64,000 nucleotides of DNA from a virus (Duplodnaviria > Caudoviricetes): the IMG/VR virus record IMGVR_UViG_3300035498_000956. One strand, 5' to 3'. Shown in pieces: positions 14,646-40,189 of this stretch. The notes under the pieces are model-generated. The model did no database searches and was not told the DNA's origin. It was given only the letters and a program-made list of their open reading frames with translations. The translations under genes and the position numbers were made by a program. Position 1 is the stretch's first letter. Each line of letters starts with the position of its first letter.

Positions 14646-15634
14646 TGAAAAGATTAATTATATTAGTAGGTCTGCCCGCAAGTGGCAAAAGCACAATAGC
14701 AAAAAATTTAGTCATTCAACATGGCGGAGTAGTTGTAGCTACTGATAAGATTAGAGAAGAGCTATATGGTACTAGAAAAGAACTGGGTGGTAAAGAAATC
14801 TTTACTGAAGCAAAAAATCGTATTATTAAAGCTTTTAAAGATGGGGAGAAAAACGTTTATTTTGATGCAACAAATCTACGTAGTAAGAAACGAGCATCAT
14901 TTATTAGGTCAATTCAAGAACAGATTGATGAGAAAATTTCTGTTGTAGCTCTTTTGATTGCTGTATCAAAAGATACAGTGAGAATCCAAAATGAAAGGAG
15001 ACCTCAAGAGCATCAAGTTCCAGCTTATGTGATAGAGAGGATGTTAAGAAATTTTCAAATGCCGATGTATCATGAAGGATTTAGTCACATTATAGTTTTT
15101 TATAATGATATTTTTAATTTTATGCATGAGTACAATATACATAATCAACATTTCTTTGGGGCAATATTAGATTTAATGGATTTTGACCAAGAAAGTCATT
15201 ATCACTCATTAACACTAGGCGAACACTTGTACGCAACTTGTATAAATCTTAGAGAAATGATGCGTGGAGATGCATTTAGAGACGGGCAAGAGGATAGGTT
15301 TCAAACTGTTTCTGAGGCTGGTTTATTGCATGATATAGGAAAGCAGTATACGAAGACGTTTTATAATACAAAGGGAGTATTAGATGATACAGCTCATTAC
15401 TATGGTCATGAAAGTTTTGGGGCGTATGAATCTTTATTCTATCCAACTAAAGCTAAGAGTGGTATGAAAGCGATTATTTATAGGGCACAGCTCATAAGCA
15501 ATCATATGATGCCATATCATTTTAATACTAAATCTCAAACAGAGCTAAATAAAAAATTGTTAAGGAAATTTAAAGACCAAAATTTCGTTGATGATTTAAT
15601 GTTGTTACATATGAGTGACGTTAATAGTCACTAA
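14645..15634 (+). CDS. Polynucleotide kinase (AAA_33) fused to an HD domain
   Basis: GLPASGKST, TDKIR, FDATN; H...LGEH, LLHDIGK, GHE, HM, D. Confidence 0.85.
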   Translation: MKRLIILVGLPASGKSTIAKNLVIQHGGVVVATDKIREELYGTRKELGGKEIFTEAKNRIIKAFKDGEKNVYFDATNLRSKKRASFIRSIQEQIDEKISVVALLIAVSKDTVRIQNERRPQEHQVPAYVIERMLRNFQMPMYHEGFSHIIVFYNDIFNFMHEYNIHNQHFFGAILDLMDFDQESHYHSLTLGEHLYATCINLREMMRGDAFRDGQEDRFQTVSEAGLLHDIGKQYTKTFYNTKGVLDDTAHYYGHESFGAYESLFYPTKAKSGMKAIIYRAQLISNHMMPYHFNTKSQTELNKKLLRKFKDQNFVDDLMLLHMSDVNSH

Positions 15635-18027: not shown

Positions 18028-18176
18028 AGGTATTGACTTTTTTCAAATAGTGTGATATAATAGACGTATAGCTTGGAAGTTCCCTCACTTCTAAGAAATA
18101 ATATAGTATTTATTTGTTAATTAGGACTAGCTTAATAGCTAGTCTTAATTATTAAAATTTGTATGGAGGGCTGACA

Positions 18177-18935
18177 ATGATTAATAATGATATACAAAAA
18201 TATACAGAGCGATGTATGTTGTTCTATTTTTTTGATTCAATACCATTATTGCGAAATGCTGAAAAAAATCGTGTTGTGCAAGACTTTATTGACATAAGAG
18301 ACATAGACAAAGAATTAGCAGATAAAATGGTATTATGTGCTAGAGATATAAGCAATGGATATGGAGAGCGTAGAGTTGGCAGAATTTTACTACAAACTTT
18401 AGCAACTTTAGACCCAACAAAAGTTATAAGGAATTTATCCACATTTGTTGAAATAGGTAGATGGGATGATTTATTTATATTAGAGGGCACTCCATGTGAA
18501 GATGCAATGTGGAAATTTATTAAAAAACAAATTAAACAAGATTTAGACGATATGAAAGATGGTAAAAATATTTCTTATTTATTCAAATGGATGCCATCTA
18601 TTAATACTTCTAGTAAAGAAAAAGTTAGATTAGCTAAAAAGATTTGTACACTCTTTGGTTACACTGAAAGAGAATATAGGAAAATGTTATCAAAAGGAAG
18701 GGAATATTTAAGAATAGTTGAAAGAAAAATGAGTGCAAATCAATGGGACGATATAATTTTTGAAGTTGTACCTGTCGCGGCGAAACGACAGTATCATAAA
18801 TCTTTCAAACGTCATTGTTCTTCTTTTGATTATGAACAAAAAGAATGTCCTATTCAAACTGTTGATGTTAATCAAGTGGAACAATCTCAATATGAACTAA
18901 TGATAGAAAAATTAAACAGTTACGAATATAAATAG
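18177..18935 (+). CDS. DUF2828 / TROVE-like protein, lacking a C-terminal vWA domain
   Basis: ARDI..GYGERRVGR, GRWDDL, KWMPS, YRKMLS, IVERKMS..QW. Confidence 0.75.
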   Translation: MINNDIQKYTERCMLFYFFDSIPLLRNAEKNRVVQDFIDIRDIDKELADKMVLCARDISNGYGERRVGRILLQTLATLDPTKVIRNLSTFVEIGRWDDLFILEGTPCEDAMWKFIKKQIKQDLDDMKDGKNISYLFKWMPSINTSSKEKVRLAKKICTLFGYTEREYRKMLSKGREYLRIVERKMSANQWDDIIFEVVPVAAKRQYHKSFKRHCSSFDYEQKECPIQTVDVNQVEQSQYELMIEKLNSYEYK

Positions 18936-19666: not shown

Positions 19667-20197
19667 ATGAGAGAACTATTTACGGCAGATCTTCATATCG
19701 GGCATACAAATATTATCAAACATTGCAATCGCCCCTTTGAAGATACAGATGAAATGAATAAAATAATACTTGATAATTGGAATAAGACTGTACAAAGAGA
19801 TGACCTTGTATATATACTTGGTGATGTTGCTCTAAGTAATAGATATGGAGTTGAAGAATTTCTTCAAAAAGCTAAAGGTAGGAAAATTCTTATTAAAGGA
19901 AATCATGATGGCTGGGTTAAAGGTCATTTTAGATTTTTCTTTGAGGATGTGCTTTCTTATCTTCAAATCAGGAGAAATGGAAAAATCATTACAATGTGTC
20001 ATTATCCAATGATGAGTTGGGAGGGCATTAATAAAAATGGTATTATGCTATACGGACATATACATAATAATAGACCAATGATTTATCTACCTCAAATGTA
20101 TAATGTAGGAATGGATGTTAATGGATTTAGACCTGTTACTCTTGATGAGGCAGTAATGAATAATAAGGAATATTATGGAGAGGAGTATGATATATAA
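19667..20197 (+). CDS. Calcineurin-like metallophosphoesterase
   Basis: ADLH, LGDV, GNHD, CHYP, GHIH. Confidence 0.9.
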   Translation: MRELFTADLHIGHTNIIKHCNRPFEDTDEMNKIILDNWNKTVQRDDLVYILGDVALSNRYGVEEFLQKAKGRKILIKGNHDGWVKGHFRFFFEDVLSYLQIRRNGKIITMCHYPMMSWEGINKNGIMLYGHIHNNRPMIYLPQMYNVGMDVNGFRPVTLDEAVMNNKEYYGEEYDI

Positions 20198-21318
20198 TGT
20201 TAGAGATTCAAAAGTTTTTAATACAATATGATGATGCATTAGAGAGATTGACTAAACCTCCTTATAATTTAAAAATCAAAAGTAAGAATGGTCTTTATAT
20301 ATTTAGTTATCGTCAATTTGATAGTGATTTTACTTTAGAAATCGTTAAAGAGTCAAGAGGTCTAATACTTGAAGCTGATACGTGGAAAGTAGTTCGTTAC
20401 TCTTTTAAAAAGTTTGGTAATTATGGGGAATCTTACGCCGACAAAATTGATTGGGACAGTGCTGTTGTTACTGAAAAAATTGACGGCAGTATTATAGCTC
20501 TTTACTATTATAATGGAAAGTGGAATGTTGCAACAAATGGTATGATTGATGCAGAGGATGCTCCTTTAATGGAGACTTGCATTTATAAAAACTATAAAGA
20601 GTTGTTTGATTCCGCGGCGAAAAAGGTAGGATTGGATTATAGTCATTTAAACACTTCTATGTGTTATACTTTTGAACTGGTCAGTGAATTTAATAAAATT
20701 GTATTAGACTATCCTCTTGATTTATATCATTTATCTACAAGAAATCTTACTACCCTTGAGGAAATAGAGATTGATATTGGAATACGTAAACCGCAGACTT
20801 TCGCATTGTCCAGTTTAGCTGATGTTATTGACGCGGCGAAAGCGTTAGGTAAAAATGGGGAAGGATTTGTCGTTAAGGATAAAAATTGCAATCGTATTAA
20901 AGTTAAATCCCCTGAATATGTTTTGGGACATAAGCTAAGGGATAGTGTAACTACTGCAGAGCTATTGGATATTGTAAAGAGGGGTGAACAAGAAGAGTTT
21001 TTAACATATTTTTCTGGTCTAGAAAGTCGTATTCAAAGAATAGAGCAATACTATAAAGAGGTATCTAAAGCTATCAGCCAGCAAATCACCAATGCAATCA
21101 ATCTCTATAAAGAAAATTCTAATCGAAAGGATTTTGCTTTGGCTATTGATTCTCAAAAAATTCCTATAGCTTATAGACAATTTTATTTTACAGCTTATGG
21201 CGAGCTTACAGCTCATAGAGATTCGCCTTATAAGACTATTATAAAAAAGTATTTTGATAATACTCCTTCTGCTAAGATTTTAAAAACATTTCCTATTGAC
21301 GATTTTACGTTAAATTAG
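20197..21318 (+). CDS. T4 Rnl1-like RNA ligase
   Basis: ESRGLI, KFGN, EKIDGS (motif I), FEL, EGFVV, RIKVKS. Confidence 0.85.
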   Translation: MLEIQKFLIQYDDALERLTKPPYNLKIKSKNGLYIFSYRQFDSDFTLEIVKESRGLILEADTWKVVRYSFKKFGNYGESYADKIDWDSAVVTEKIDGSIIALYYYNGKWNVATNGMIDAEDAPLMETCIYKNYKELFDSAAKKVGLDYSHLNTSMCYTFELVSEFNKIVLDYPLDLYHLSTRNLTTLEEIEIDIGIRKPQTFALSSLADVIDAAKALGKNGEGFVVKDKNCNRIKVKSPEYVLGHKLRDSVTTAELLDIVKRGEQEEFLTYFSGLESRIQRIEQYYKEVSKAISQQITNAINLYKENSNRKDFALAIDSQKIPIAYRQFYFTAYGELTAHRDSPYKTIIKKYFDNTPSAKILKTFPIDDFTLN

Positions 21319-21875: not shown

Positions 21876-22124
21876 ATGAGAAATAAAATTACACTTTTAG
21901 GTATGAGAGATATTCAAGAATTTGTTAACATCTGTGCTAACATCGATAGTGAGGTCGTACTTTATTGTCCAGTAAACGGATATAGAGTAAGTGCAAAGTC
22001 ACTATTAGGGGCAATTGCTTCTATGGAATGGAATGAGGTCTGGGTTGAATGTGATAAGGATATTTATTCCTCAATTGAAAAGTTTATTAAAGTTAGTTCT
22101 GATTCTACAGTATATCATTCATAA
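21876..22124 (+). CDS. HPr-like protein
   Basis: 82 aa; VSAKSLLG (Ser46-equivalent motif); no His15 equivalent. Confidence 0.65.
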   Translation: MRNKITLLGMRDIQEFVNICANIDSEVVLYCPVNGYRVSAKSLLGAIASMEWNEVWVECDKDIYSSIEKFIKVSSDSTVYHS

Positions 22125-27046: not shown

Positions 27047-27577
27047 ATGTCGATAATGGAAGAGATTTATATTATGACGCATTTAATACATCAGTTTGAT
27101 GAAGGAGGCAACGTGTTTAGTTTGATTTCACAAGGTTCTTCAAAATCAGTTTGGGAAGTTGCTGAGGGTTATGTCATAAAAACTCCCAATATGGAATATG
27201 ATTATTGTCAAGACGAGATTAATTTATATAATGAAGCTCGTGAACAAGGACTAAGTAAATTCTTTGCTTTGACTTTTAAGTTTGATAATCATGAAATTCA
27301 AGAGCGGGTTGAACCAGTAGAGATGGTTCAATGCCAAGATACAAAGCAGATAGTTCAATGGAATACAGATATGACTGGTAAAGGATTTGAAACTATTCAA
27401 TATGAAATGTCTGTTAATTTACAGCAGAAACTTCTAGAAAAATATGGTGAGGAAGAGCTACTAAAGTTTGATGAGTTCGTTACTAATTTTGGTATTAATG
27501 ATATTAGAGATAATAACTGGGGTTATAATGAACGAGGTAATCTAGTATTATTTGATTTTAGTGGTTACGCCGATTAG
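27047..27577 (+). CDS. Minimal protein-kinase-like protein (paralog 1); start uncertain
   Basis: GSSKSV..YVIKTP, E, QE, DIRDNNWG, LFDFSG. Confidence 0.75.
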   Translation: MSIMEEIYIMTHLIHQFDEGGNVFSLISQGSSKSVWEVAEGYVIKTPNMEYDYCQDEINLYNEAREQGLSKFFALTFKFDNHEIQERVEPVEMVQCQDTKQIVQWNTDMTGKGFETIQYEMSVNLQQKLLEKYGEEELLKFDEFVTNFGINDIRDNNWGYNERGNLVLFDFSGYAD

Positions 27578-27589
27578 GGGAATAGATAG

Positions 27590-28174
27590 ATGGATTTAAA
27601 CAAAAGAAAGAAGTTATCGAATTTATGGGTGATTTCAGGTTTTGTAGTAAATTTAGTATCATCTTTTGTTTATCCCTTCGTCTATTATATAGCACTGCAA
27701 GCTATTCCATCGAGTTTATTGTCTTTTGAGCAGATAATAAGTTGCCTTGGAGTAGCTTTTTTTGGTTTTCTATGGAATAGAATAGGGGATAAACTGTTTC
27801 GACATTTTACTAGTGCAATTCTTATCAACATCATAGGAACGATTGCTATTATTATAGTTACGTTATTGACTAAAAATTTATCAGCTTATTATTTAATCAA
27901 CGTGGTTATCGCCGCGACAGTATCAACGAATGTAACCTGCGGGCATATTAAAATGAAGACATTGATTAATCCGACAAGCGAAGAACGAGAACATTTTGAC
28001 AACCGCAATAACACAGCTTATTCAATAGGAACACTATGTGGGGCGACGCTGGCATTGTTTTCTTCTATTGACTTTACAACGGCATTTGTGGCATCGAATA
28101 TAATATACATAATAGATGATATCGTGTCCATCTATATTTATAAGCAGATAAAATCAAATGAAAAACAGAGTTGA
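27590..28174 (+). CDS. Multi-pass membrane protein (half-MFS-like)
   Basis: About six hydrophobic segments. Confidence 0.65.
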   Translation: MDLNKRKKLSNLWVISGFVVNLVSSFVYPFVYYIALQAIPSSLLSFEQIISCLGVAFFGFLWNRIGDKLFRHFTSAILINIIGTIAIIIVTLLTKNLSAYYLINVVIAATVSTNVTCGHIKMKTLINPTSEEREHFDNRNNTAYSIGTLCGATLALFSSIDFTTAFVASNIIYIIDDIVSIYIYKQIKSNEKQS

Positions 28175-28224
28175 TTTTATTTTTAGCTTACGTTATAATA
28201 ATAAAAGAAAGTGAGGGGATGCCA

Positions 28225-28452
28225 ATGGAGAAAATTATTCTAAAATATAGATGGCAAGTTTATTTAATGTTGACAGGTTTGAGATTATTTAATGTGGATG
28301 AAAAAGTATTAGTTGCAATTTCTATTATTATATGCGGAGTTAAGTTAAAGGATGCGTATAATAGACAAGAGAAAGACGGTACTATTATTAATGGAACTAG
28401 TCTTTCTCTTAATATAATTAGTTTAATGAGCAGTCTATTGAATTGGACTTAA
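28225..28452 (+). CDS. Small membrane protein
   Basis: Own promoter; hydrophobic. Confidence 0.45.
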   Translation: MEKIILKYRWQVYLMLTGLRLFNVDEKVLVAISIIICGVKLKDAYNRQEKDGTIINGTSLSLNIISLMSSLLNWT

Positions 28453-28530
28453 TTGAAAGTGACGACAGATTATGATATAATAATTACAGTAAATGAGAAA
28501 AGCAGAGACAAATAAGAAAGGATGATGTAT

Positions 28531-28998
28531 ATGACAAACATCGCAACTGAGCTATATAATTGTGGAGGCTATGCCCTCGAGACATATGATTGGTATGACC
28601 CATCTCCTCTTGATATTAACATAGACTACTATGATGAGTTTATCAATGAGGATTTACATATTGATGACGGCGTTGTGTATGATACAATATATGAAGCTTT
28701 ATTAGACGGCGACTTAACAGAATCCCACCTTATGGAATACATGGTACACAATATTCTTATCGATGTTCATAGAAAGATTAGAAGAATCAATGACCTTTCT
28801 GAATTACAAGAGAATGAATATGGTGTACTATTTAGAGGAGGCTGTGACGATTTTCACTTCATCAAATATGAAGACGGAGTATTCAGCCATAAAATGGGCG
28901 GAAGAAAAGTTGAAATATTGGACATTTCAGAAGAATGGGAGATAGATTGGTTAGGTTATACAAGCGAAACTTATTATTTCGCTATTGCTAGGAGGTAG
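28531..28998 (+). CDS. Putative papain-like Cys/His enzyme
   Basis: YNCGGYAL ... DFHF ... FSHKMG. Confidence 0.5.
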   Translation: MTNIATELYNCGGYALETYDWYDPSPLDINIDYYDEFINEDLHIDDGVVYDTIYEALLDGDLTESHLMEYMVHNILIDVHRKIRRINDLSELQENEYGVLFRGGCDDFHFIKYEDGVFSHKMGGRKVEILDISEEWEIDWLGYTSETYYFAIARR

Positions 28999-29002
28999 TT
29001 AT

Positions 29003-29875
29003 ATGCAAGATTTTACTTTTTATGGAAAAATAAAATATAAGGGTACTATTACTTCAGATGGAAAGTTAATAGGTGAATCTTATCTAGACAATGATTATAA
29101 AATAGTTAGAAGTGTTCGTTATCATGGTGGAGAAAAGTGTTCGGATTATACTAATTCTTCTCATTCAGTAACAATAGCAGGAGCTAAATTCTATGTTAAA
29201 GAGCAGGTGGGCTTAAATTTAAAATCTGTGTTTACATATGATGAGCTAATGAGGTTGATATCTGTTGAGGTTTATGATTTAGAAGAAAACAAACTCGATA
29301 CTCTTTATATTTATAGCTATATTCAAGATACTAATATTGTAGCAACATATCTAGACGCAATTAAGCACGAATATATTACTGTTTATTATAATAAAAATAA
29401 TCTCTATACGTATATAAATATGAATACTCAAAAAATAGTTGCAACCTATTCTAACACAGACAAAAAATGTATAACATATTATGATACAGAGGGCAATGTT
29501 GTACAAACAATGTATAAAGATGATACTTCAGAGGTTGCTGATTGCAGTGATGGTAGTTACATCTATTCTGCATATAATAAAGACGGCGAATTAATTAAGT
29601 ATATTAGTATCATGCCCGATGAAGATAATAAAGCTCCTAGTACTATTAGTGTACAAACTTTCCGTTATGATGATGAGAATCGAGAAATTTATAGCTCAAT
29701 TGAAAGTAGATGGGATAATTTATATGACCTTGAAGAAACAGAATCTTATTATAATAAAGAGGGGCTAATCGATAAAGAAGTTATTTCTGTAACTCAAATA
29801 GATAAGGACGGACGCAGAATAAATGAACAATATGAGTATAACTATAATTGGGAAATTATAGACGAAGAGGAATAA
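29003..29875 (+). CDS. YD-repeat-like hypothetical protein
   Basis: Repeated Y(D/N)xxG motifs; RBS GGAGG. Confidence 0.6.
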   Translation: MQDFTFYGKIKYKGTITSDGKLIGESYLDNDYKIVRSVRYHGGEKCSDYTNSSHSVTIAGAKFYVKEQVGLNLKSVFTYDELMRLISVEVYDLEENKLDTLYIYSYIQDTNIVATYLDAIKHEYITVYYNKNNLYTYINMNTQKIVATYSNTDKKCITYYDTEGNVVQTMYKDDTSEVADCSDGSYIYSAYNKDGELIKYISIMPDEDNKAPSTISVQTFRYDDENREIYSSIESRWDNLYDLEETESYYNKEGLIDKEVISVTQIDKDGRRINEQYEYNYNWEIIDEEE

Positions 29876-29892
29876 AGAGGAGGAGTAATAAA

Positions 29893-30312
29893 ATGATTCG
29901 AGATTTAGAAGTTTGTTTTTTAAATGAAACTGGTATGGAGTTAAGATATTTTGATTTGTTAGATGATGAATATGTAATGACACATCTCTCAGGAAAAGAA
30001 AAATGTATGAATGACCTTCCTGAATTAAAATACATAATTTTACCATCATCTGAAGCACAAGATGAATTTATTGACATCATGCATAAAGCGGGCGAAATGT
30101 GCGGATGTAATTTTGATTTGCCAAAAAGTGATATCAAAAATGGTATTATATATCGTTATGATAAAGATAAGTGGAGCGTAATTCCAATTGAAGAACTGCA
30201 AGAAGCAAAACATATATTTATGACTGGCTCAGGATTTAATGAACATTGGTTCGTTATTAATAAGTTAATAGACTTAAAAGATTTTCGTAGAAAACACCTA
30301 AAATTAACATAA
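29893..30312 (+). CDS. Hypothetical protein
   Basis: RBS GGAGGAG. Confidence 0.6.
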   Translation: MIRDLEVCFLNETGMELRYFDLLDDEYVMTHLSGKEKCMNDLPELKYIILPSSEAQDEFIDIMHKAGEMCGCNFDLPKSDIKNGIIYRYDKDKWSVIPIEELQEAKHIFMTGSGFNEHWFVINKLIDLKDFRRKHLKLT

Positions 30313-30401
30313 TAACATAGTTGCAAAAATCAGCAGACTATGATATAATAATTATAGAAAATCAAAAAGCCGAGGGTTAAATTGAAAAGGAGAAAATGCA
30401 T

Positions 30402-30908
30402 ATGAAAAAGATTTATGTTGCTTTTGATGGTTGCCAATTCAATAGTGCTTATGAGTGTCTCGTTTATGAGGAAGCTCGTAATAAAAACATATCAGAGTCT
30501 TTCAAAAAGACTATTAGAGCATATGATACTAATGGCGAAGAACTAGAAATTCCTAGTCTTATAGGAATCCTTCCTACTGATTATGATAATCAAAACGCAT
30601 ATCAAGAGATAAAAGATACTTTTCCTGATGAAGCAGAAGAATGTTTTGCGTTTGCAGAAGAAATGACATATATTAGCTGTGGAGACGCAGGTAATCTACA
30701 AAAGTTCAAAGAACAGATGAAAGCTCTAGGCGTGTTAACTGGATTTGATATAGACCTACCAGTAGAACAAATCTTTTATTCTCACGGGGTTTTCTATTTT
30801 AATGAGGAGACTCAAAAATTTGAAGCCATTACAGAACAGCAATATAAAACAGCAAGAACTCTATCTGCTGTGTGTGACATGATTGATGAAGAGTTTCTCC
30901 CATTTTAG
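30402..30908 (+). CDS. Hypothetical protein (A.DG..F....EC..YE family, like 55508 and 58559)
   Basis: Shared N-terminal motif; own promoter. Confidence 0.65.
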   Translation: MKKIYVAFDGCQFNSAYECLVYEEARNKNISESFKKTIRAYDTNGEELEIPSLIGILPTDYDNQNAYQEIKDTFPDEAEECFAFAEEMTYISCGDAGNLQKFKEQMKALGVLTGFDIDLPVEQIFYSHGVFYFNEETQKFEAITEQQYKTARTLSAVCDMIDEEFLPF

Positions 30909-31007
30909 GGAGGAAGACAACTCAACTGAGTTGATTTCTTTCATAAATCATGATATAATAATTATAGAAAATCGGAAATCAAGTGTAAAGAATAAAGGAG
31001 AATGTTT

Positions 31008-31607
31008 ATGGAACTAAAGAAAAATATTACAAATGCAATCGAGTTCGTTGACGGTTTCGACCTTTCAGTCGAGGACAAGGAAAAGCTTATGTGTAAGCTG
31101 GTTACACTAGAATGTGTAAAGAGCAAGAACGAAGAGTTAAGGAATGAAATTAAAGAACTAAAACAGGGAGTCAAGAATTGTCAATCTCCTTATAAAAAAT
31201 CTAAAGAACACAAAAAAGTGGTCGATAGATATAATGAGATTGAATTTAGAATAGACTATCAGCACAACGGCATGACAGAAATCTATTCTGATTACGACCT
31301 ATGGAACTTTATCTACTATCTCTACGTTGATGCCGACGAGGTAATTGGTAGGTATCTAGATAAATATGCGTGGGACGAAATGAACGGAGCTGATGGTATT
31401 ATTAAGGAACTAAATGATAATCCACAGTTTATCTCTCAAATGAGATTGTCTATTGCAACAGCACTCTATAATGAAATTTTGGCAAGATGTGTATTAAATT
31501 ATCAGAGGGGCAATAGAGAGACTCGATTTGAATTAGATATATATTCCTCTACACCTAAGATTGAAAACAGAATTTACATAAAAATGTTAAATGATTTAGA
31601 AGACTAG
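31008..31607 (+). CDS. Hypothetical protein
   Basis: Own promoter and RBS. Confidence 0.65.
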   Translation: MELKKNITNAIEFVDGFDLSVEDKEKLMCKLVTLECVKSKNEELRNEIKELKQGVKNCQSPYKKSKEHKKVVDRYNEIEFRIDYQHNGMTEIYSDYDLWNFIYYLYVDADEVIGRYLDKYAWDEMNGADGIIKELNDNPQFISQMRLSIATALYNEILARCVLNYQRGNRETRFELDIYSSTPKIENRIYIKMLNDLED

Positions 31608-31646
31608 TAAAGAGCTGTAAAGAATCAGTAGAAAGGGGAGATTGAT

Positions 31647-32063
31647 ATGAAATCATTCACTTGTAGTTTAGTGTTATATTTCTATAATGAAGGTGAGTGT
31701 ATTTACACGTTTGACCATGAAGTGTGGTCTAATCAATTTCCTCTTAAGAATGCCTTTGAGGGCATAGCTGATTGTTTACAGCTCATTTCTGTTTCTGATG
31801 AGCTGGGATACCACTATGATTTGACCGTAAAACAAGTTAGATATTGTTACGATTTTCTTCAAAGATTTTATAGAGATTACTATAATAGTAGTAAAGCAAG
31901 AGCATTACTATCTCTCTTGAAAGACTATAATACGGACGCTTATTTCGCCCGCATAAGCACAGATAGTCGCATGGAGTGGGAATTGAATCATGAGTTTGCG
32001 TTAAAAGTATTAGAGTTTGATAATATAAAAATTCGTTATTTCTATGAGGAATATCCCTCTTGA
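31647..32063 (+). CDS. Hypothetical protein
   Basis: RBS GGGGAG. Confidence 0.6.
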   Translation: MKSFTCSLVLYFYNEGECIYTFDHEVWSNQFPLKNAFEGIADCLQLISVSDELGYHYDLTVKQVRYCYDFLQRFYRDYYNSSKARALLSLLKDYNTDAYFARISTDSRMEWELNHEFALKVLEFDNIKIRYFYEEYPS

Positions 32064-32137
32064 TTTTGTTCGCAGAGTGTGATATAATTATTACAGTAAA
32101 TGAGAAAAACAGAAACGAGTTTGAAAGGGGAGTGCAT

Positions 32138-32911
32138 ATGTTAAGAATGATTAGCGAGCAAGAGCAAGAGAGAGTTACAGCTATGGTTAAAATGATAGTT
32201 GGTGACGCTAAGAGAATATATAATCTCCGTGATGATTGTGACTACATAGTAATTTCCTCTGAAACAGAGGGGAATACTCTCTATTCAATTGACGACATTC
32301 AGGACTTGTTAATAGAGCAAATGAAAAAGCAGTTCGGCACAGCTCAAAATTATGAATGTAATATATCAGTTAGTAAAGGTCTTACTAAACTTGTAATTGT
32401 TGATTCTACAAGAGAATATGCAATCAAGATACCATTTACGGGGAGTGCATATGCAATAAATGAAGATTATACAGATTATAATTTCTATCCACTAAACTGT
32501 AATTATTGTAAAGAGGAGCAGGATATTTATAATAGTCTACCTGACAGTGTTAAGCCTATATTCGCAGAAACTAGATATCTATTATCAGTGAACGATTATA
32601 TCGAAGTATACATACAAGAGCAGGTAGAAGAAGCCTTTGACGAAAGCTGGAAAAATGACGGTAGTTTGACTATTGATGATTTACCAGAAAAAGAGAAAGC
32701 ACCAATGCAAAGCTTTAGAAAAAAGGGATATGTGTGGGATTTAGACCAGCAGTTTATCTATGATATTCTACTACGTTATGGCGAAATGACTGTTGAGGAG
32801 CTTATGGATACAATTTATGATGAGAATATTAATGATTTACACAACGGAAATTATGGATATACAAGAGACGAAGAGCCAAAGATATTTGATTACAGTGGAT
32901 GGAGAGACTAA
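32138..32911 (+). CDS. Minimal protein-kinase-like protein (paralog 2)
   Basis: GLTKLV..YAIKIP, YIQE, DLHNGNYG, IFDYSG. Confidence 0.8.
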   Translation: MLRMISEQEQERVTAMVKMIVGDAKRIYNLRDDCDYIVISSETEGNTLYSIDDIQDLLIEQMKKQFGTAQNYECNISVSKGLTKLVIVDSTREYAIKIPFTGSAYAINEDYTDYNFYPLNCNYCKEEQDIYNSLPDSVKPIFAETRYLLSVNDYIEVYIQEQVEEAFDESWKNDGSLTIDDLPEKEKAPMQSFRKKGYVWDLDQQFIYDILLRYGEMTVEELMDTIYDENINDLHNGNYGYTRDEEPKIFDYSGWRD

Positions 32912-33008
32912 AATAGAGGCGGTGACCTAGTTGCCTTAATGCCCAGCTTATGATATAATTATTATAGTAAATGAGAAAAGCAGAGACGAGTTTGAAAGGG
33001 GAATGCAT

Positions 33009-33782
33009 ATGTTAAGAGAGATTAACAAACAAGAGGTAGAGGAAATCAAAGCTATAGTACAGGTTGCAACACTCTACGGTAAAGCAGTCTATTCAACTGT
33101 CGAAGATAATGACTTAGCTATAATAGAATTTGAAGATGATATGATGGTATGCTATACAGTAGGCGAGCTACTCAATAAACTTAAATGGGACATTGCAACT
33201 AAACTGGGCGGAAGTAAAGAAGATTATATGGATAGATTCCACATTTATAAAGGAGCAACTAAGCTTGTCATAGATGATGTTGAGAGAGATTATGTGATAA
33301 AGATACCTCTAGAAGGCGAAGCATCTACAGATGATGATGGTATTTACTACCAATCTTTTAATTACGAGTATGACTACTGTGACATAGAAAAGAATATATA
33401 CGAAGACTTACCTTACTGCGTTAAGCCTCTATTTGCAGAGACTCAATTCCTCTGCACTCTTGATAATTCAATATCAATCTATATACAAGAAAAGGTTACT
33501 GAATCATTCTACGACAGCGAGCAGGGTAGTAGAGAGTTTATATATGGCGACCTACCAGAAAATGAAAAGGCTACAATGAGGAACTTTAACGAAAAAAGAT
33601 ATACATGGACACTTGAACCTCAATTCATTTACGATATATTATTACGCTATGGCGAAATGACTGTTGAAGAGCTAATGTACGTGATTGATTACTTCAGTAT
33701 TACTGATTTACACAGCAGAAACTATGGATATCAAAAGGACGGCAAGCCTAAAATATATGACTATAGTGGTTACGAGTTTTAA
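33009..33782 (+). CDS. Minimal protein-kinase-like protein (paralog 3)
   Basis: GATKLV..YVIKIP, YIQE, DLHSRNYG, IYDYSG. Confidence 0.8.
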   Translation: MLREINKQEVEEIKAIVQVATLYGKAVYSTVEDNDLAIIEFEDDMMVCYTVGELLNKLKWDIATKLGGSKEDYMDRFHIYKGATKLVIDDVERDYVIKIPLEGEASTDDDGIYYQSFNYEYDYCDIEKNIYEDLPYCVKPLFAETQFLCTLDNSISIYIQEKVTESFYDSEQGSREFIYGDLPENEKATMRNFNEKRYTWTLEPQFIYDILLRYGEMTVEELMYVIDYFSITDLHSRNYGYQKDGKPKIYDYSGYEF

Positions 33783-33796
33783 TGGAGGGATGTAAA

Positions 33797-34063
33797 ATGG
33801 AAAGAATTTATTACGTGATACGAGATAACGAGTTTATCCCATATACAGACCTATGGGATATAGCAAAGGAATGCATTACCGATGAGCGTATAGGTCAGTA
33901 CTATGGTACTGACAGCTTTTCGGCGGAGCAAAAGGAATACCATCTAGGTCAATGTCACACACATTTAAAAAGAGACAGCTTAAAATCAAGAGAAGGAACA
34001 ACATATTACGTTGATGACTCTTTAGGTCAGGATATTTTAATCTACTGGGTTTCACGCAATTGA
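33797..34063 (+). CDS. Hypothetical protein
   Basis: RBS GGAGG. Confidence 0.55.
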   Translation: MERIYYVIRDNEFIPYTDLWDIAKECITDERIGQYYGTDSFSAEQKEYHLGQCHTHLKRDSLKSREGTTYYVDDSLGQDILIYWVSRN

Positions 34064-34138
34064 TTTAATCAACAGACTATGATATAATAATTACAGTAAA
34101 TGAGAAAAGAAAAAGTGAGTTTTGAAAGGGGAATGTAT

Positions 34139-34879
34139 ATGATTAGAATTACTCAATTGGATTATAACAGAATTAATAATGTACTATCTCAAGTATATGA
34201 CGAAGACAGAGGTGGCATTTTTGATAATGAAGAAGGAGTCATTACATTAGCTTATTCATACTTAGATTATGTCGGCGAAATAACAAGTGGGTCATCAAAA
34301 TTAGTTTACTTTCCACCTGATACAAACTATGTTGTAAAGATTCCAATAACTGGAATAATAGAAGAGAATTACTATTCTGAGTCTGATACAATAGAGGTTG
34401 AAGAAGTAGTTTATGATGGATTTAGAACATCATCCTCTTGTGAAGACGAGATGTTCCTCTATAAGGAGGCTAAGGTTCTTGGCATTAGTGATTTCTTTCC
34501 AGAAATTGTAGAGATAGAAACAATTCTGAACGAGAAAGTCTATGCACAAGAGAAAGTAGAAGCATTTCTTTCTAGCGATTTAACAAAGACTGAATCGGTT
34601 CTACAAAAAACTGTAGATAGTAAAGCTAAATCATCACAATCGCAGGACATAAGAACGGCAGAGGAGCAATGGTTTGAAGATAATTATCTCGGCTATTTAG
34701 GTCAAGTGGCAGAGCAAGAAATTATTTTTAGATTAATTGAGCAATATGGAATAGACAAAGTTAAAAAACTCAATACATTCTGCAAGTTACATGATATTAA
34801 CGACATAAAGTATTATAACGTGGGCGTTAATTCAAAAGGTAAAATAGTAATCTTTGACTATAGTGGCTGGGGTAATTAA
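34139..34879 (+). CDS. Minimal protein-kinase-like protein (paralog 4)
   Basis: GSSKLV..YVVKIP, YAQE, DIKYYNVG, IFDYSG. Confidence 0.8.
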   Translation: MIRITQLDYNRINNVLSQVYDEDRGGIFDNEEGVITLAYSYLDYVGEITSGSSKLVYFPPDTNYVVKIPITGIIEENYYSESDTIEVEEVVYDGFRTSSSCEDEMFLYKEAKVLGISDFFPEIVEIETILNEKVYAQEKVEAFLSSDLTKTESVLQKTVDSKAKSSQSQDIRTAEEQWFEDNYLGYLGQVAEQEIIFRLIEQYGIDKVKKLNTFCKLHDINDIKYYNVGVNSKGKIVIFDYSGWGN

Positions 34880-34970
34880 TAACTCTAACTCAGTTGAAGA
34901 AAATTTCAGTCTATGATATAATAATCACAGTAAATGAGAAAAAAAGGTGAGTTTTGAAAGGGGAATGTAT

Positions 34971-35273
34971 ATGGTATACTATGTTGAAACTCAAGAGGAT
35001 GGATTCGTAGGTCTATGTAAAATTGATGAGTACAAAGAGTTCTTTAAGAACTACTACACTCGTGAGAGAGTTGAGAATTACCTACTGGCGAATGGTTATT
35101 CCGCCGTTGACCTTATTATGTTTAACAATGTAGACTATGAAATGCTAAGAGATAAGCTCGCTCAGATTGAGATTGAAAAGTACGAAAAGGTAAGAGAGAA
35201 TATTAGAAATGGCAGAGGATATGGCTCTAATTTCTATAGTGGCAATTTCCACTTTTTCTTTGACTATGACTAA
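34971..35273 (+). CDS. Hypothetical protein
   Basis: Own promoter and RBS. Confidence 0.6.
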   Translation: MVYYVETQEDGFVGLCKIDEYKEFFKNYYTRERVENYLLANGYSAVDLIMFNNVDYEMLRDKLAQIEIEKYEKVRENIRNGRGYGSNFYSGNFHFFFDYD

Positions 35274-35286
35274 GGAGGAATGTGTA

Positions 35287-35406
35287 ATGTTTGCAACTGT
35301 TACTGGTGTTATAGCTCTTGTCTTAGCAATCGCATTTTTGGTGATTGCTATTGCGGGCGGATGTGGAGAATTTCTTACAGAACAAGACAACAGAGAGGAG
35401 GAGTAA
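35287..35406 (+). CDS. Small single-pass membrane protein
   Basis: RBS AAGGAGG; hydrophobic N-terminus. Confidence 0.5.
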   Translation: MFATVTGVIALVLAIAFLVIAIAGGCGEFLTEQDNREEE

Positions 35407-35497
35407 ATAACTCAATTGAAAAAATCTCTAAGCTATGATATAATTATTATAGTAAATGAGAAAAGAAACTAAGACTTATTTTTAAGGAGAGTTGTTT

Positions 35498-36244
35498 ATG
35501 ATTAAGGTTACTCAATATGATTACAGTAAGATTAATGACGTATTATCTCAATTATATGATTATGAGAGAGAAGGAATTTTTGATTATGATGATGGAGACT
35601 TTGTCTCTTGTTGCAATTACGTTGATTATGCGGGCGGAGAGTTAGCCACTGGAGCTTCCAAAGTAGTCTATATGCCCCCTCAAGCAGATTTTGTTGTTAA
35701 AGTTCCTATCACTGGCTCAATTCAATCTGTATATGATGAGGATACAGACGAGTATTTAGAGGATGATGAAGAGATTTATGACGGCTTTAGAACATCTTCC
35801 TATTGTGAGGACGAAATGTTTCTCTATGAGGAAGCAAAGGTTCTAGGTATCAATGAGTTTTTTCCTGAGATAATGGAAATAGAGACAATTCTAGAAGAAA
35901 AAGTATTCGCACAAGAGAAAGTAACGCCTTTATATGCAGTAGTTGATTTAGACATCCTAAATTCTAAGATTAAAGACGAAATAGATAGTAAAGCAAAACT
36001 ACAATCAAAAGACGTTAGACAATCAGAGCTAAAATGGTTTGATGACAATATGCTTGGCTATCTAAGTCAAGTGACAAATAGAGAAATAATCTTTGCATTA
36101 ATAGAACAATATGGTATAGATAAGGTTAGAAAGCTCAACACACTTTGCAAACTCCACGGCATCAACGATATAGAAGACCGAAATGTTGGCGTTAATAAAA
36201 ACGGCAAAATTGTAATCTTTGACTATAGCGGTTGGAATTGTTAA
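35498..36244 (+). CDS. Minimal protein-kinase-like protein (paralog 5)
   Basis: GASKVV..FVVKVP, FAQE, DIEDRNVG, IFDYSG. Confidence 0.8.
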   Translation: MIKVTQYDYSKINDVLSQLYDYEREGIFDYDDGDFVSCCNYVDYAGGELATGASKVVYMPPQADFVVKVPITGSIQSVYDEDTDEYLEDDEEIYDGFRTSSYCEDEMFLYEEAKVLGINEFFPEIMEIETILEEKVFAQEKVTPLYAVVDLDILNSKIKDEIDSKAKLQSKDVRQSELKWFDDNMLGYLSQVTNREIIFALIEQYGIDKVRKLNTLCKLHGINDIEDRNVGVNKNGKIVIFDYSGWNC

Positions 36245-36336
36245 GCCGATTAACTTAGTTGAAAAAATCTTTAGGCTATGATATAATAATTATAGTAAAT
36301 GAGAAAAGCAAACAGACCTTTGAAAGGGGAATGTGT

Positions 36337-36459
36337 ATGTTAGAATATGGTTATTTTGGTATAGTTTATGATGATGAAGAATACTACGAGGGCGACAGCT
36401 ATTATTTCGCTGGTCGTGGTAGAACCGATAGCTATGAGGAGGAGTATGATGAAGCTTAA
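36337..36459 (+). CDS. Small acidic peptide
   Basis: Own promoter and RBS. Confidence 0.45.
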   Translation: MLEYGYFGIVYDDEEYYEGDSYYFAGRGRTDSYEEEYDEA

Positions 36460-36676
36460 AAAGATAAGAAAGTTGATACCATCCTATGCGAGAGACAGAA
36501 TTAGAGTAATCCAATATCAAAAGCACGAAGTAAAGGGGTTCTGGTTATCAAATGATAAGAAATTTTCTAAGTATAAGGATTATCAAATAGTTGAGATTAC
36601 GCCTTTTACTTCGGGCGATGGAGTTTCTTTAATCGGTGTAACAATTCAAAGCGATGAGATAGCTACTGTAGCGTAG
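36449..36676 (+). CDS. Small protein of the MK(I/L)K family
   Basis: MKLKKI...YKDYQIVEI, similar to 50500 and 62276. Confidence 0.55.
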   Translation: MKLKKIRKLIPSYARDRIRVIQYQKHEVKGFWLSNDKKFSKYKDYQIVEITPFTSGDGVSLIGVTIQSDEIATVA

Positions 36677-37025
36677 CGGAAAGAAGGTTTATATGTTAAA
36701 AACTGTTTATGTTGTAACTAAAGGTAAAATGGCTGGCACAAAGGGTACAATTCAATACTGTACTCAATCAAGAGAGAAGGTAATATTTCACCCATTGAAA
36801 AATAGTCTCTCTACAATCGTGCTTGATAGAACAGCTGTAAAAGGAACGAGGAAGAGAGCTTAGGCTCTCTTTTTCTTTTGCCCGAAAAAACTAGGTTGAT
36901 GATTCGTAGTTTCGCCGTGAAATAAAGTCGCTTGAATAACTGAGTTGAAATACTCCTCAAGCTATGATATAATTATTATAGTAAATGAGAGAAACAAAGG
37001 TTAATTTGAAAGGGGAACTGTAAGT

Positions 37026-37817
37026 ATGAGAAAGTTTACAAAAATGGAAATAGAGAAAATCAGTGACATGGTTGAATTAATAATGGGCGAGGGCATAAAC
37101 TTTGTTGATACAGAGATACTATCCGTTATAAAGTTTAATGAGAATGATTATGATGACTACGAATCCTATACTCTAGCATATCTAGCAGAACTAATCCAAG
37201 ATGAGTTTGATATAGATGTTACTATTGATATGGGAGCTACAAAGCTAGTAATAATGGAAAAAGGGCAAGACTATGTAATTAAAGTCCCACTAGAAGGAAT
37301 CATTGAAGCAAGATTTGATGAGGACGCAGAGGAAGAGGGCGACTTTGGTAATATGTATTACTATTGTATAGATGATGCAGAACATTTCAGTGTTGACTAT
37401 TGTCAGATTGAAGCAGAGAACTATAAGAAAATGCCTGAAAGCGTAAAGAAAATATTATGTGAGAGTGTTGAACTCGGTCAACTAAGCAATGGTACAGCAT
37501 TTTACGTACAAGAAAGAATTGACCATACTTTTCCTAGTGATAATTGCATGAGGGACATCCGCCGTTTTTCAGAAGAACAAAGGGATAAAGCCTATAGCTT
37601 AATCTCTAGTATTAAAGAGAAAGAGAATTTTAATTACCAGTATGAACTAAGAACTGTTCTTGTTAATGAATTAATCCTAGCCTATGGAGAAGCTACTACA
37701 TACGAACTCTATCAAGCTTTAATAGACCTACAAATCAATGATATTCATCTCGGTAATCTTGGTTTTGACGAAGAGGGAGCTTTAAAAATATTCGACTATT
37801 CAGGCTTCTTCCGTTAA
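37026..37817 (+). CDS. Minimal protein-kinase-like protein (paralog 6)
   Basis: GATKLV..YVIKVP, YVQE, DIHLGNLG, IFDYSG. Confidence 0.8.
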   Translation: MRKFTKMEIEKISDMVELIMGEGINFVDTEILSVIKFNENDYDDYESYTLAYLAELIQDEFDIDVTIDMGATKLVIMEKGQDYVIKVPLEGIIEARFDEDAEEEGDFGNMYYYCIDDAEHFSVDYCQIEAENYKKMPESVKKILCESVELGQLSNGTAFYVQERIDHTFPSDNCMRDIRRFSEEQRDKAYSLISSIKEKENFNYQYELRTVLVNELILAYGEATTYELYQALIDLQINDIHLGNLGFDEEGALKIFDYSGFFR

Positions 37818-37904
37818 CTCAATTGCTTTTGACCGCAGTTTATGATATAATTATTATAGTAAATGAGAAAAGCAGAGATAAAAATTGAAAGGGGAACTGT
37901 AAGT

Positions 37905-38684
37905 ATGAGAGAGTTTACAAACAGCGAATTAAAGAAAATTGAAAGCATTGTTGAGTTCATTGTCGGCGGAGCTGAAAAGCTTTTAGGCGATAGGGATGAC
38001 GACATAATACTTAGATATACGAAAGGAGAAGGATTTGATGATTTCTTTGAGTTTTATGATTTAGAGGAATTAATTCAAGAAGAATTAGGTCTTGATGTTA
38101 TTATTAGTGCTGGGGCAACTAAAATTGTAGCAATAGAAAGAAAACAGAATTACGTAATTAAAATTCCTATGGACGGCTCTATTGTTGCTCAAGTTGATAT
38201 TACTACAAATGATAACTATACTACTTACACATCTACATATAAAGAAAAAGATATCAAGTACTATGATTGCGACTATTGTCAAATTGAAGCAGATAACTAT
38301 TCTGCAATGCCCGACAATCTAAAAAAATTATTCTTTGAAACTATTAAACTGGGCGAGCTAGAAAACGGAATCTCATACTACGTTCAAGAGAGAATGGCTG
38401 AAGCTTATGACTTTAGCTTTGGAGAGGGACATATCTCATATCTAACAAAAAATAAGCTTAACGACCTACTTACTACAATCAAAAGCAATGGTATCTATAA
38501 CAAAAACTATATGCTTAATTTCGGTATAATCAATGCTCTACTCTATCTATATGACGAAGCTACTGTCTATCAACTATATCAAGCTTTAATGGATTTAAAA
38601 ATCAACGATATCCACTTTGCAAATCTCGGCTATGATATAAATGGCGACTTAAAAATATTCGATTATTCAGGATACCACAATTAA
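37905..38684 (+). CDS. Minimal protein-kinase-like protein (paralog 7)
   Basis: GATKIV..YVIKIP, YVQE, DIHFANLG, IFDYSG. Confidence 0.8.
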   Translation: MREFTNSELKKIESIVEFIVGGAEKLLGDRDDDIILRYTKGEGFDDFFEFYDLEELIQEELGLDVIISAGATKIVAIERKQNYVIKIPMDGSIVAQVDITTNDNYTTYTSTYKEKDIKYYDCDYCQIEADNYSAMPDNLKKLFFETIKLGELENGISYYVQERMAEAYDFSFGEGHISYLTKNKLNDLLTTIKSNGIYNKNYMLNFGIINALLYLYDEATVYQLYQALMDLKINDIHFANLGYDINGDLKIFDYSGYHN

Positions 38685-38770: not shown

Positions 38771-40189
38771 ATGGGTAATTTAGATTATAAAATAGCGTCC
38801 GCATTTCCAAAGGCATCTTTAAAGAAAAGTAAGAGTAGCTCTGCTATTCTTTCTTTCCTAGAGCTACCAAGCGAGGTTAAAGACTGGTTGCTAATGAAGT
38901 TCACTGACGGCAATAACAGACTAGACGCTTATGGTTTGTCAACCTACATAGAAGAAATGCGTCTCGCCGTTGAAGAGTTCAACATTAAAATGCTAGAAGC
39001 ACGCCATTCTAAGAGGGGAACTATTACACTTCTAACTAAGATTAAAATTGAATTTGACTATGCAAAAGATTTAATCCTATTCGAGCTACCAGAATATGGT
39101 TTTCCTCAAAAGAAGGGAACGGCATTAGCAGACTGGTCAACAGTAAGCGACCACAAGAAATATCTTCTTACTCCTGATGGAGCATTCGGCGAGGTAACCC
39201 TTTGCTATGATTGTGGCACTATTAATCTACAAAGCTTTAAGCCACTTTGTCCTTATACTTTTGATTTAAAAGAATATGCCGAGGGACGTAAGCAATTCAC
39301 TACTGAAGAATGGATTGATGTAATACTTGCATCAATGGGGTATAATCCTGATGGTTATACAAATGAAACAGAAAAGCTTACTATGATACAGAGATTTTTG
39401 CCAATGGTTGAGAAAAGGGTTAACCTAGTAGACCTCGGCGGAAAAGGTACTAGTAAGAGCTATTGTTATTCTCAAACATCCGCCCACGGCTGGTTAACAT
39501 CTGGTAGTGGTGCAACAAGAGCAAAAATGTTTTATGATATTACAAGGAGAAAGGTTGGTTATTTTGGTATAAACGATTTTGTTGCTTTGGATGAAGTACA
39601 AAGTTTACGTCCTAAGGATGGAGCTGAGCTTAGCGGTATTTTGAAAGCTTATCTTGAGAATGGACAAATAAGAGTCGGTGATTTTATGGGTAACGGCGAT
39701 GCTGGTTGTATCCTATTAGGTAATATACCTGAAGCAAAAATGGATACAAACAAGAATATGTTCGCCACGCTACCCAACATTTGGAAGGAGAGTGCATTAG
39801 TAGATAGATTTCACGGCATAATCCGTTCATGGAATATTCCTCGTGTTCATGAGGGATTGAAAATGGAGGGTACTGCTCTATCAACAGACTACATAACAGA
39901 AATATTCCACCAATTGAGAGACAAATTCTATTTCCGTGCATTTGTTGACGACATGATTAAAATTGAAGGACGTGCAGATACACGTAATACTGAAGCAGTA
40001 AAACGTCTAGCAACAGCATTTCTCAAACTACTATTCCCTCACGTTACATCAGTAGACGAAATCGATAAGGACGAATTTAAAAAGTATTGTCTTGACCCAG
40101 CATATCAAATGAGAGAAGACGTTCTAAAACAACTACGTTTGCTTGATAGCGAGTACGAGGATAAACTAATGCCAAACATTAGTCTATAA
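38771..40189 (+). CDS. BrxL-like AAA+ ATPase without the Lon protease domain
   Basis: FTTEEWID..L.S.GY.P, R.LP.VE...NL..LG.KGT.KS, VALDEV, ALVDRFHG. Confidence 0.8.
   Translation: MGNLDYKIASAFPKASLKKSKSSSAILSFLELPSEVKDWLLMKFTDGNNRLDAYGLSTYIEEMRLAVEEFNIKMLEARHSKRGTITLLTKIKIEFDYAKDLILFELPEYGFPQKKGTALADWSTVSDHKKYLLTPDGAFGEVTLCYDCGTINLQSFKPLCPYTFDLKEYAEGRKQFTTEEWIDVILASMGYNPDGYTNETEKLTMIQRFLPMVEKRVNLVDLGGKGTSKSYCYSQTSAHGWLTSGSGATRAKMFYDITRRKVGYFGINDFVALDEVQSLRPKDGAELSGILKAYLENGQIRVGDFMGNGDAGCILLGNIPEAKMDTNKNMFATLPNIWKESALVDRFHGIIRSWNIPRVHEGLKMEGTALSTDYITEIFHQLRDKFYFRAFVDDMIKIEGRADTRNTEAVKRLATAFLKLLFPHVTSVDEIDKDEFKKYCLDPAYQMREDVLKQLRLLDSEYEDKLMPNISL

Follow-up and report, generated by a model that had tools for sequence, protein, structure and literature searches.

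Seven paralogous kinase-like genes that end at a DFG-type motif in a promoter-rich region of one phage genome

This study concerns seven kinase-like genes in viral DNA from the IMG/VR record IMGVR_UViG_3300035498_000956 (Duplodnaviria; Caudoviricetes); by the window we mean the whole stretch of 64,000 nucleotides that was analysed. The window is part of a phage genome and encodes a giant tail-fibre-like protein, an endolysin with GH25, dockerin and M15 peptidase domains, a UvrD-type helicase, a polynucleotide kinase-like protein and a T4 Rnl1-like RNA ligase; one of its proteins, from the kinase set described below, is also recorded from a contig of up to 158,465 bases. Apart from the tail-fibre and lysis genes, in a promoter-dense, early-type stretch of small genes, lie seven plus-strand open reading frames (ORFs) of 176–263 amino acids, which we call K1 to K7. 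The part of the window that holds them has a G+C content of 30–36%. They are paralogues (pairwise BLASTP E values from 1e-66 to 1e-6), and each matches a hidden Markov model (HMM) of the family at E values of 1e-28 to 1e-52. A previous reading of this DNA, made from the sequence only, had described seven homologous kinase-like ORFs with a shared set of motifs, and their coordinates, motifs and catalytic loops are as claimed there. A six-frame scan of the whole window with that HMM recovered exactly these seven, with no eighth copy:

27047..27577, plus strand: K1, 176 amino acids, the shortest paralogue; catalytic loop DIRDNN; ends in DFSGYAD; family HMM E value 1.3e-28
32138..32911, plus strand: K2, 257 amino acids; catalytic loop DLHNGN; sister of K3 (43% identity); family HMM E value 2e-49
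33009..33782, plus strand: K3, 257 amino acids; catalytic loop DLHSRN; the copy modelled from a deep alignment
34139..34879, plus strand: K4, 246 amino acids; catalytic loop DIKYYN; sister of K5 (62% identity)
35498..36244, plus strand: K5, 248 amino acids; catalytic loop DIEDRN; sister of K4
37026..37817, plus strand: K6, 263 amino acids; catalytic loop DIHLGN; sister of K7 (42% identity)
37905..38684, plus strand: K7, 259 amino acids; catalytic loop DIHFAN; sister of K6

The longer ORFs with TTG starts reported by the ORF finder (32060 and 35492) begin inside the −35 box; the true starts of the kinase genes are the ATGs downstream of the GAAAGGGGA ribosome-binding site. Invariant in the seven proteins are the glycine of G-x-S/T-K, the lysine of (Y/F)(V/A)(I/V)KxP, the C..E pattern of helix C, QE, D....N.G and D(Y/F)SG. 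All of them thus carry, in order, the β3 lysine, the helix-C glutamate, the catalytic aspartate and asparagine, and the metal-binding aspartate. Each protein ends six residues past the aspartate of the DFG-type (Asp-Phe-Gly-type) motif, which is three residues past D-Y/F-S-G, in agreement with the claim of the sequence-only reading that the rest of the C-lobe is absent. A complete eukaryotic-type C-lobe, with activation segment, APE motif and helices F–I (PF00069, Pkinase), is not present in K1–K7, and Pfam scans of the seven and of relatives gave no match to the Pkinase HMM. K1 differs further in having neither the N-terminal extension nor the insert between β3 and helix C.

The truncation after the DFG-type motif is native and a family-wide trait, not peculiar to this phage. 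Among 147 relatives, G82, K98, D233, N238 and D251 (K3 numbering) are present in every sequence (147/147) and E127 in 139 of 147; a histidine stands two positions after the catalytic aspartate in 128/147, and the residue after the DFG-type aspartate is tyrosine or phenylalanine in 141/147. The C-terminus lies exactly six residues past D251 in 101 of the 147 aligned members and at most eight residues past it in 120.

The family to which the seven genes belong is both large and unannotated. When 1.84 billion cluster representatives were searched with the family profile, 2,631 clusters (50% identity) were found at E≤1e-3 and 1,804 at E≤1e-10; all family sources in this search were metagenomic, and the sole name given was ‘hypothetical protein’. 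The best 150 family clusters listed are 128–278 amino acids long, and all members met are stand-alone proteins (128–291 amino acids); fused longer forms were not found among proteins of 488–2000 amino acids, which is weak evidence. The nearest clusters of the protein atlas are viral (Uroviricota) and have no Pfam family in common even in Pfam 38.1, and in the nearest annotated ones Phage_T7_kinase is found in 17% of members and Kinase-PolyVal in 80% of members. BFVD holds a few uncharacterised family members from gut phage assemblies. Among the phages of GenBank (50,697 records), neither megablast of the region nor tblastn of K3 and of a central family member (P0017) gave a match. K1–K7 and the relatives scanned have no passing match in Pfam or NCBIfam; the Pfam release used is without PF27024 (Phage_T7_kinase), and the T7 gp0.7-type kinases (T7K) themselves give no match in it. 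The unannotated family PHROG 4301 is matched at E≤1e-3 by 14 of 41 family members (best E value 1.9e-7), including K3 (4.9e-4); K4 reached it in a separate scan (6.9e-5) and the other five copies did not. PHROG 4301 is not reached by most family members, and carries no functional information. Phage kinases, and minimal kinases in general, are already known kinds of protein. What is new is a very large unannotated phage family that ends at a DFG-type motif and is expanded to seven conserved copies in one genome; nothing like a seven-copy array of DFG-terminated phage kinases was found described in the literature searched.

The sequence-only reading had proposed a comparison of predicted structures with protein kinase-like (PKL) folds, and AlphaFold2 models of two copies do match such folds. 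For K3 a model was obtained from 147 family sequences, with a mean predicted local distance difference test score (pLDDT) of 88.3 and a predicted template modelling score (pTM) of 0.87. Its N-lobe is predicted to consist of β1, a glycine-containing loop (G82, K85), β2, β3 with K98, a β-hairpin insert and helix C with E127; β4 and β5 follow, the latter ending in QE (160–161), then several helices, the catalytic loop D233-x4-N238, and finally two short strands and D251-Y-S-G before the C-terminus. The order of elements is that of a canonical kinase, and the order of catalytic residues agrees with the predicted strands and helices. When this model was compared with the PDB by Foldseek, all listed matches were kinase-like and nearly all were protein kinases (best E value 4.6e-4). 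With VIA-align, run all against representatives, all 50 listed matches were kinase-like folds (Z 5.8–7.3), and the target ranges stop near the DFG position, for example at 4–160 in PknB and 10–159 in CDK7. The model of K1 was made from the seven-sequence alignment (pLDDT 77) and shows a β-hairpin where the K3 model has helices. Its best PDB matches are OspG (E value 2.4e-4), NleH2, Rio2 and Lpg2603, with HopBF1 and PRPK lower; SAICAR synthetases and the choline kinase LicA also rank high. K1–K7 very probably adopt a kinase-like fold.

Several known groups of small kinases invite comparison. T7K is encoded early by the phage, as K1–K7 appear to be, and its kinase-like catalytic domain is likewise small; stand-alone short forms exist, such as gp0.5 of Cronobacter phage Dev2 (244 amino acids), and the structural matches in BFVD include T7-like kinases. 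BLAST and HMM searches revealed no relation between the family and T7K. When an alignment of seven T7K domains was compared with the family by hhalign, a match was obtained (probability 82.5%, E value 1e-5) over 31 columns only, from the catalytic loop to the DFG position, in which D-M-H-S-G-N...L-V-I-T-D-P-V of T7K is aligned with D-L-H-x-x-N...P-V-I-F-D-Y-S of the family. Since fructosamine and aminoglycoside kinases have a loop of this type too, this match does not establish membership of the T7K family, although the aligned residues fit a catalytic core of shared type. The differences are considerable. The variant of the DFG motif is D-P-V in T7K and D-(Y/F)-S-G in all seven copies; Dev2 gp0.5, the shortest T7K relative fetched, runs about 20 residues past the aspartate where the family stops at six; and T7K carries a shut-off domain after the kinase domain, which K1–K7 do not. 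The T7K phages sampled usually have one copy per genome (881 places in 879 records) against seven here, and they differ in the likely host too: enterobacteria for T7K, a Clostridia type here. The T7K family has been described as marked by the D-P-V motif and usually a C-terminal shut-off domain, and the T7 kinase itself is reported to be hyperpromiscuous, phosphorylating host proteins very broadly and disarming defence systems (PMC13645617).

Among bacterial proteins, OspG, NleH1/2 and HopBF1 have reduced kinase domains of about 170–200 residues with no activation loop, and resemble the K1 model; OspG also matches the K3 model (Z 6.0). For OspG and NleH the resemblance is structural only, with 12–15% identity and no detectable sequence relation. 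These proteins are secreted by type III systems and work as effectors inside eukaryotic cells, whereas K1–K7 are encoded by a phage. They also retain a short C-lobe past the DFG-type aspartate (the OspG alignment ends at residue 160 and the chain continues), whereas the phage family stops at the motif. Rio and Bud32/PRPK are, like K1, compact kinase-like folds with no activation segment (TM 0.48–0.51 for Rio2 against the K1 model), but they serve ribosome and tRNA biogenesis in the cell as housekeeping ATPases or kinases, carry extra C-lobe helices, and have no sequence match to the family. PF18762 (Kinase-PolyVal) is a kinase-like domain of only 160 positions that occurs in phages and conjugative elements and has been placed in the PKinase clan of Pfam (PMC9758233); such domains form part of giant polyvalent proteins, in contrast to the stand-alone members of the family studied here.

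Seven copies in one genome is exceptional, as became apparent when copies were counted across relatives, another check that the sequence-only reading had suggested. Five IMG/VR phage records (43–186 kb) that were searched whole hold one, one, one, one and three family copies; four of them are 94–100% complete by the CheckV estimate, and the 43-kb record is a fragment (33%). The three-copy genome is L006 (178.7 kb), and in one single-copy record an in-frame stop divides the kinase into two neighbouring parts. In four other long contigs the kinase gene is the single copy over 10 kb in each direction, and a strain contig that continues for about 10 kb beyond the window end, on the downstream side only, has no copy there. 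Given that the relatives sampled hold one to three copies, the seven represent an expansion. Adjacent genes are the most similar, with identities of 43% (K2/K3), 62% (K4/K5) and 42% (K6/K7) against 22–33% for all other pairs, and in a maximum-likelihood tree of 153 family members these pairs are sisters (supports 88, 98 and 99), as the sequence-only reading had supposed from the letters. Each pair clade also holds a metagenomic relative. K2, K3, K6 and K7 fall inside one eight-row clade (support 96), and K4, K5 and K1 form a group that includes one other relative (support 94); no supported branch joins these two deep groups, each of which also holds members from other contigs.

The idea of serial duplication followed by diversification thus fits the three tandem pairs, but the duplications are ancient. 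Synonymous divergence (dS) among the paralogues is 1.8–3.0, which is saturated, and the expansion is therefore old. Comparison with strain orthologues (dS 0.06–0.13) gave ratios of non-synonymous to synonymous substitution rates (dN/dS) of 0.05 for K6 (against L016) and of 0.02–0.03 for K7 (against L016 and L017), so at least these two copies are maintained by purifying selection and give no sign of ongoing rapid diversification. K5 is 78% identical to a relative in L015, with a dN/dS of 0.09 at which synonymous sites are near saturation. Divergence is unevenly distributed along the proteins: mean pairwise identity among K2–K7 is 53% from the catalytic loop to the C-terminus and 43% over β1–β3, against 21% in the N-terminal extension, 25% in the β3–helix C insert and 17% in the segment after the hinge.

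Most of the kinase genes lie behind a repeated unit that consists of TTGnnn, 17 nucleotides with a TG-extended TATAAT, a conserved leader and the ribosome-binding site. This promoter–leader unit (61 nucleotides shared) occurs 17 times between 24.8 and 40.6 kb, and it is found 78–82 nucleotides upstream of the ATG of six kinase genes, K2–K7:

32052..32137, plus strand: promoter and leader of K2; −35 box TTGATT at 32060, TG-extended TATAAT, conserved leader and GAAAGGGGA ribosome-binding site
32923..33008, plus strand: promoter and leader of K3; consensus match
34052..34138, plus strand: promoter and leader of K4; consensus match
35408..35497, plus strand: promoter and leader of K5; consensus match
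36937..37025, plus strand: promoter and leader of K6; consensus match
37815..37904, plus strand: promoter and leader of K7; consensus match

K1 has no promoter of its own, the nearest being 882 nucleotides upstream. That most copies have their own strong promoter, as had been proposed, is thus correct for six of the seven but is not specific to the kinases. A stricter pattern, TTGnnn-N12-14-TrTGnTATAAT, has 37 matches on the plus strand (window 13632–63329), and nearly every small gene of the promoter-rich region has its own promoter, which gives the region a cassette-like layout. A layout of this kind may be shared with the host-takeover module of Bacillus phage SPO1, in which many small early genes each lie behind a strong host-type promoter. 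The paired units recur at spacings of 871 bp (K2 to K3), 1365 bp (K4 to K5) and 867–879 bp (K6 to K7), which shows that promoter plus gene was the unit of duplication. Contigs of two gut metatranscriptome libraries (Logan) lie inside K3, K5 and K7 at 95–99% identity, a weak support for expression as carry-over of DNA is possible; such contigs cover parts of the region, do not show strand, transcript ends or level, and are uninformative on the parts left uncovered. Contigs of other samples join promoter–leader copies and skip the genes between them, at 28498/30380, 24869/36252 and 28182/38712. The 28498–30380 joint is present in two RNA libraries with an identical 19 letters between, and each of the two larger skips is seen in one contig, of low depth and with short sides; such promoter-to-promoter joints are either strain variants that arose by recombination at the repeats or assembly artefacts.

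The reading towards which we lean, on balance, is that K1–K7 are stand-alone, catalytically competent PKL phosphotransferases that are made early and phosphorylate proteins of the infected cell, with the targets divided among the copies. Its parts are not equally firm: that the seven are competent enzymes is quite probable, and that their substrates are proteins and their role lies in takeover or counter-defence is evenly balanced. The family retains the N-lobe, the hinge, helix E, the catalytic loop and the metal-binding aspartate, and then stops. Host-type, σ70-like promoters would ensure early production of the kinases, which may then use ATP to phosphorylate host or phage proteins in the infected cell, in the manner of the T7 kinase. 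The copies might differ in target choice by way of the diverged N-terminal extension, the β3–helix C insert and the post-hinge segment. The array may have grown by unequal recombination between the repeated promoter–leader units, which long ago would have duplicated promoter-plus-gene cassettes of 867–1365 bp. A bolder proposal is that of a viral ‘kinome’ of seven autonomous, substrate-specialised kinases, each switching off a different host process or defence early in infection, with the single-copy relatives, which number thousands among other phages, as widespread and unrecognised counter-defence or takeover enzymes; this we consider possible but doubtful, and we are as tentative about its further suggestion that these kinases are built on the smallest known self-sufficient kinase domain, one that ends at the DFG motif with no C-lobe beyond.

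A number of observations weigh against seven protein-phosphorylating enzymes of this kind. Sequence searches linked the copies significantly to no named kinase family. In Pfam, PF18762 alone is matched at all, by K1 at 15.4 bits against a cut-off of 27 (E value 0.019), with no match in the other six copies or in 41 family members; two related phage genomes also gave no match to PF18762, but the control genomes gave none either. Structural scores are moderate (TM of about 0.35–0.5, Z<8), so that the case for the fold rests on the uniformity of the matches and on the residue pattern. The parts with which classical kinases bind peptides, namely the activation segment, the P+1 loop and helices F–G, are all absent, and the position two residues after the catalytic aspartate is not histidine in three copies (arginine in K1, lysine in K4 and glutamate in K5). 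The promoter calls are consensus matches only, and purifying selection argues against a present fast arms race. Furthermore, depletion of serine, threonine and tyrosine, which has been reported for the proteins of T7K phages, is absent from the early proteins encoded nearby: the fraction of these residues is 0.180 in the promoter array and 0.166–0.185 in other non-structural parts, which speaks against indiscriminate activity of the T7K type. Lastly, the D-L-H-x-x-N loop is typical also of small-molecule kinases such as APH, choline kinase and fructosamine kinase.

This last point leads to the alternative that K1–K7 are small-molecule, nucleic-acid or nucleotide kinases of the PKL superfamily, whose substrates, differing by copy, would be metabolites, signalling nucleotides, cell-envelope precursors or antibiotic-like compounds. 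A profile search of PDB sequences gave a single, sub-threshold match, to a ribulosamine/fructosamine kinase aligned at the catalytic loop segment, and this match and the loop both resemble the group of APH, ChoK and FN3K. APH(2′′) enzymes are among the structural matches (Z 5.8–6.0), LicA and the SAICAR synthetases match the K1 model, and K1–K7 have no C-lobe for binding peptides. However, K1–K7 also lack the helical C-terminal subdomain in which APH/ChoK-type enzymes form their substrate pocket, protein kinases and minimal effector kinases are both the top-scoring and the most frequent structural matches, a proven protein kinase, that of T7, has the same loop type (D-M-H-S-G-N), and no metabolic genes are linked to the loci; we consider this alternative unlikely. 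Less likely again is a kinase fold that transfers no phosphate to a substrate, acting as an ATP-binding decoy or scaffold, as a Bud32-like ATPase, in AMPylation or glutamylation of the SelO or SidJ type, or as an acidic surface mimic that sequesters basic host proteins. More than half of the usual C-lobe is missing, the K1 model matches PRPK/Bud32 and Rio2, among others, and the residue two after the catalytic aspartate is glutamate in K5 and arginine in K1; against these stand the lysine, aspartate, asparagine and aspartate that are invariant in 147/147 members and in the seven copies, a pattern of active enzymes and not of pseudokinases. The strong acidity of the proteins (isoelectric points (pI) of 4.2–4.4, net charge −19 to −33) might also suggest a mimic, but acidity is common in the proteome of this phage. 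The sequence-only reading was correct that the kinases are very acidic, but the trait is general: the window proteome has a median pI of 5.0, and 21% of ORFs of at least 100 amino acids are as acidic as the kinases. Since a fifth of the larger ORFs share it, the suggestion that acidic surfaces recruit nucleic-acid-binding targets stays speculative. Finally, the copies could be redundant, supplying one broad, promiscuous activity of the T7 kinase type whose dose is raised or whose timing is spread, the targets being common to all. The hyperpromiscuity of the T7 kinase (PMC13645617), the catalytic core kept in all copies and the similar promoter that each copy has to itself are in keeping with this. 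It is, nonetheless, a very unlikely explanation: the paralogues are only 22–62% identical with an old, saturated divergence, K6 and K7 are conserved between strains contrary to what redundancy predicts, the peripheral regions differ in length and predicted structure, and the co-expressed early proteins have no depletion of serine, threonine and tyrosine.

Phosphorylation of proteins by a phage-encoded enzyme was recently reported as a broad counter-defence in the case of the T7 kinase (PMC13645617), and few families of phage kinases have so far been investigated. The family described here is large (more than 2,600 clusters at 50% identity), unannotated, and derived almost only from viral and metagenomic contigs in the collections searched. 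Should its members prove active, a kinase would evidently be able to function although its chain ends at the DFG motif, which bears on the question of which parts of the fold are essential. The seven-copy array is a natural set of variants with one shared core and different peripheries, and is convenient for asking how minimal kinases choose their targets and whether phages split takeover among several kinases. The large set of copies, as read from the sequence, suggests that this phage has an exceptionally rich supply of phosphorylating enzymes with which it would take over its host.

No partner gene conserved beside the kinases is common to all loci, and only local synteny inside subgroups was found. 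With no partner gene shared across loci, we rejected the idea that the absent C-lobe comes from a small protein encoded nearby. A Pfam scan of the ORFs between the kinase genes gave nothing informative. Immediately after K3, the start codon of an ORF of 93 amino acids (33782–34063, plus strand) overlaps the K3 stop codon, a sign that the two may be translationally coupled; Pfam gave no match for this ORF, and the kinases of other loci have none like it alongside. An ORF of 82 amino acids (21876–22124, plus strand) holds the motif VSAKSLLG; its HPr-like resemblance is unconfirmed, with no Pfam match at E≤1e-3. Directly after K1 lies a membrane protein of 194 amino acids (27590–28174, plus strand) whose match to the Major Facilitator Superfamily covers the first half and stays below threshold (E value 2.9e-6; 26.9 against a cut-off of 33.4 bits).

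Directly after K7, behind its own promoter, is a gene for a BrxL-like protein (38771–40189, plus strand) with BrxL_N and BrxL ATPase domains (E value 4.8e-98) and no Lon protease domain; the three-kinase phage L006 encodes a homologue with 60.6% identity (L006 3127–4572), which lies between its kinase copies. The endolysin (5459–7054, plus strand) combines a GH25 muramidase, a type I dockerin and an M15 peptidase, and a dockerin in a phage lysin is, to our knowledge, unusual. A narrow motif scan of species-representative genomes gave one family match, on a 15.8-kb contig of a Clostridium sp. metagenome-assembled genome (L022), and this match together with the dockerin endolysin is a weak hint of a Clostridia-type host. 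The window also holds a set of genes of RNA-repair type: an AAA_33/polynucleotide kinase (PNK)-like kinase (14645–15634), a DUF2828 protein (18159–18935), a metallophosphoesterase (19667–20197) and the T4 Rnl1-like ligase (20197–21318). In the phages L003, L006 and L007 a ligase gene lies within about 3 kb of a family kinase gene, and in L007 a PNK-like gene does so as well.

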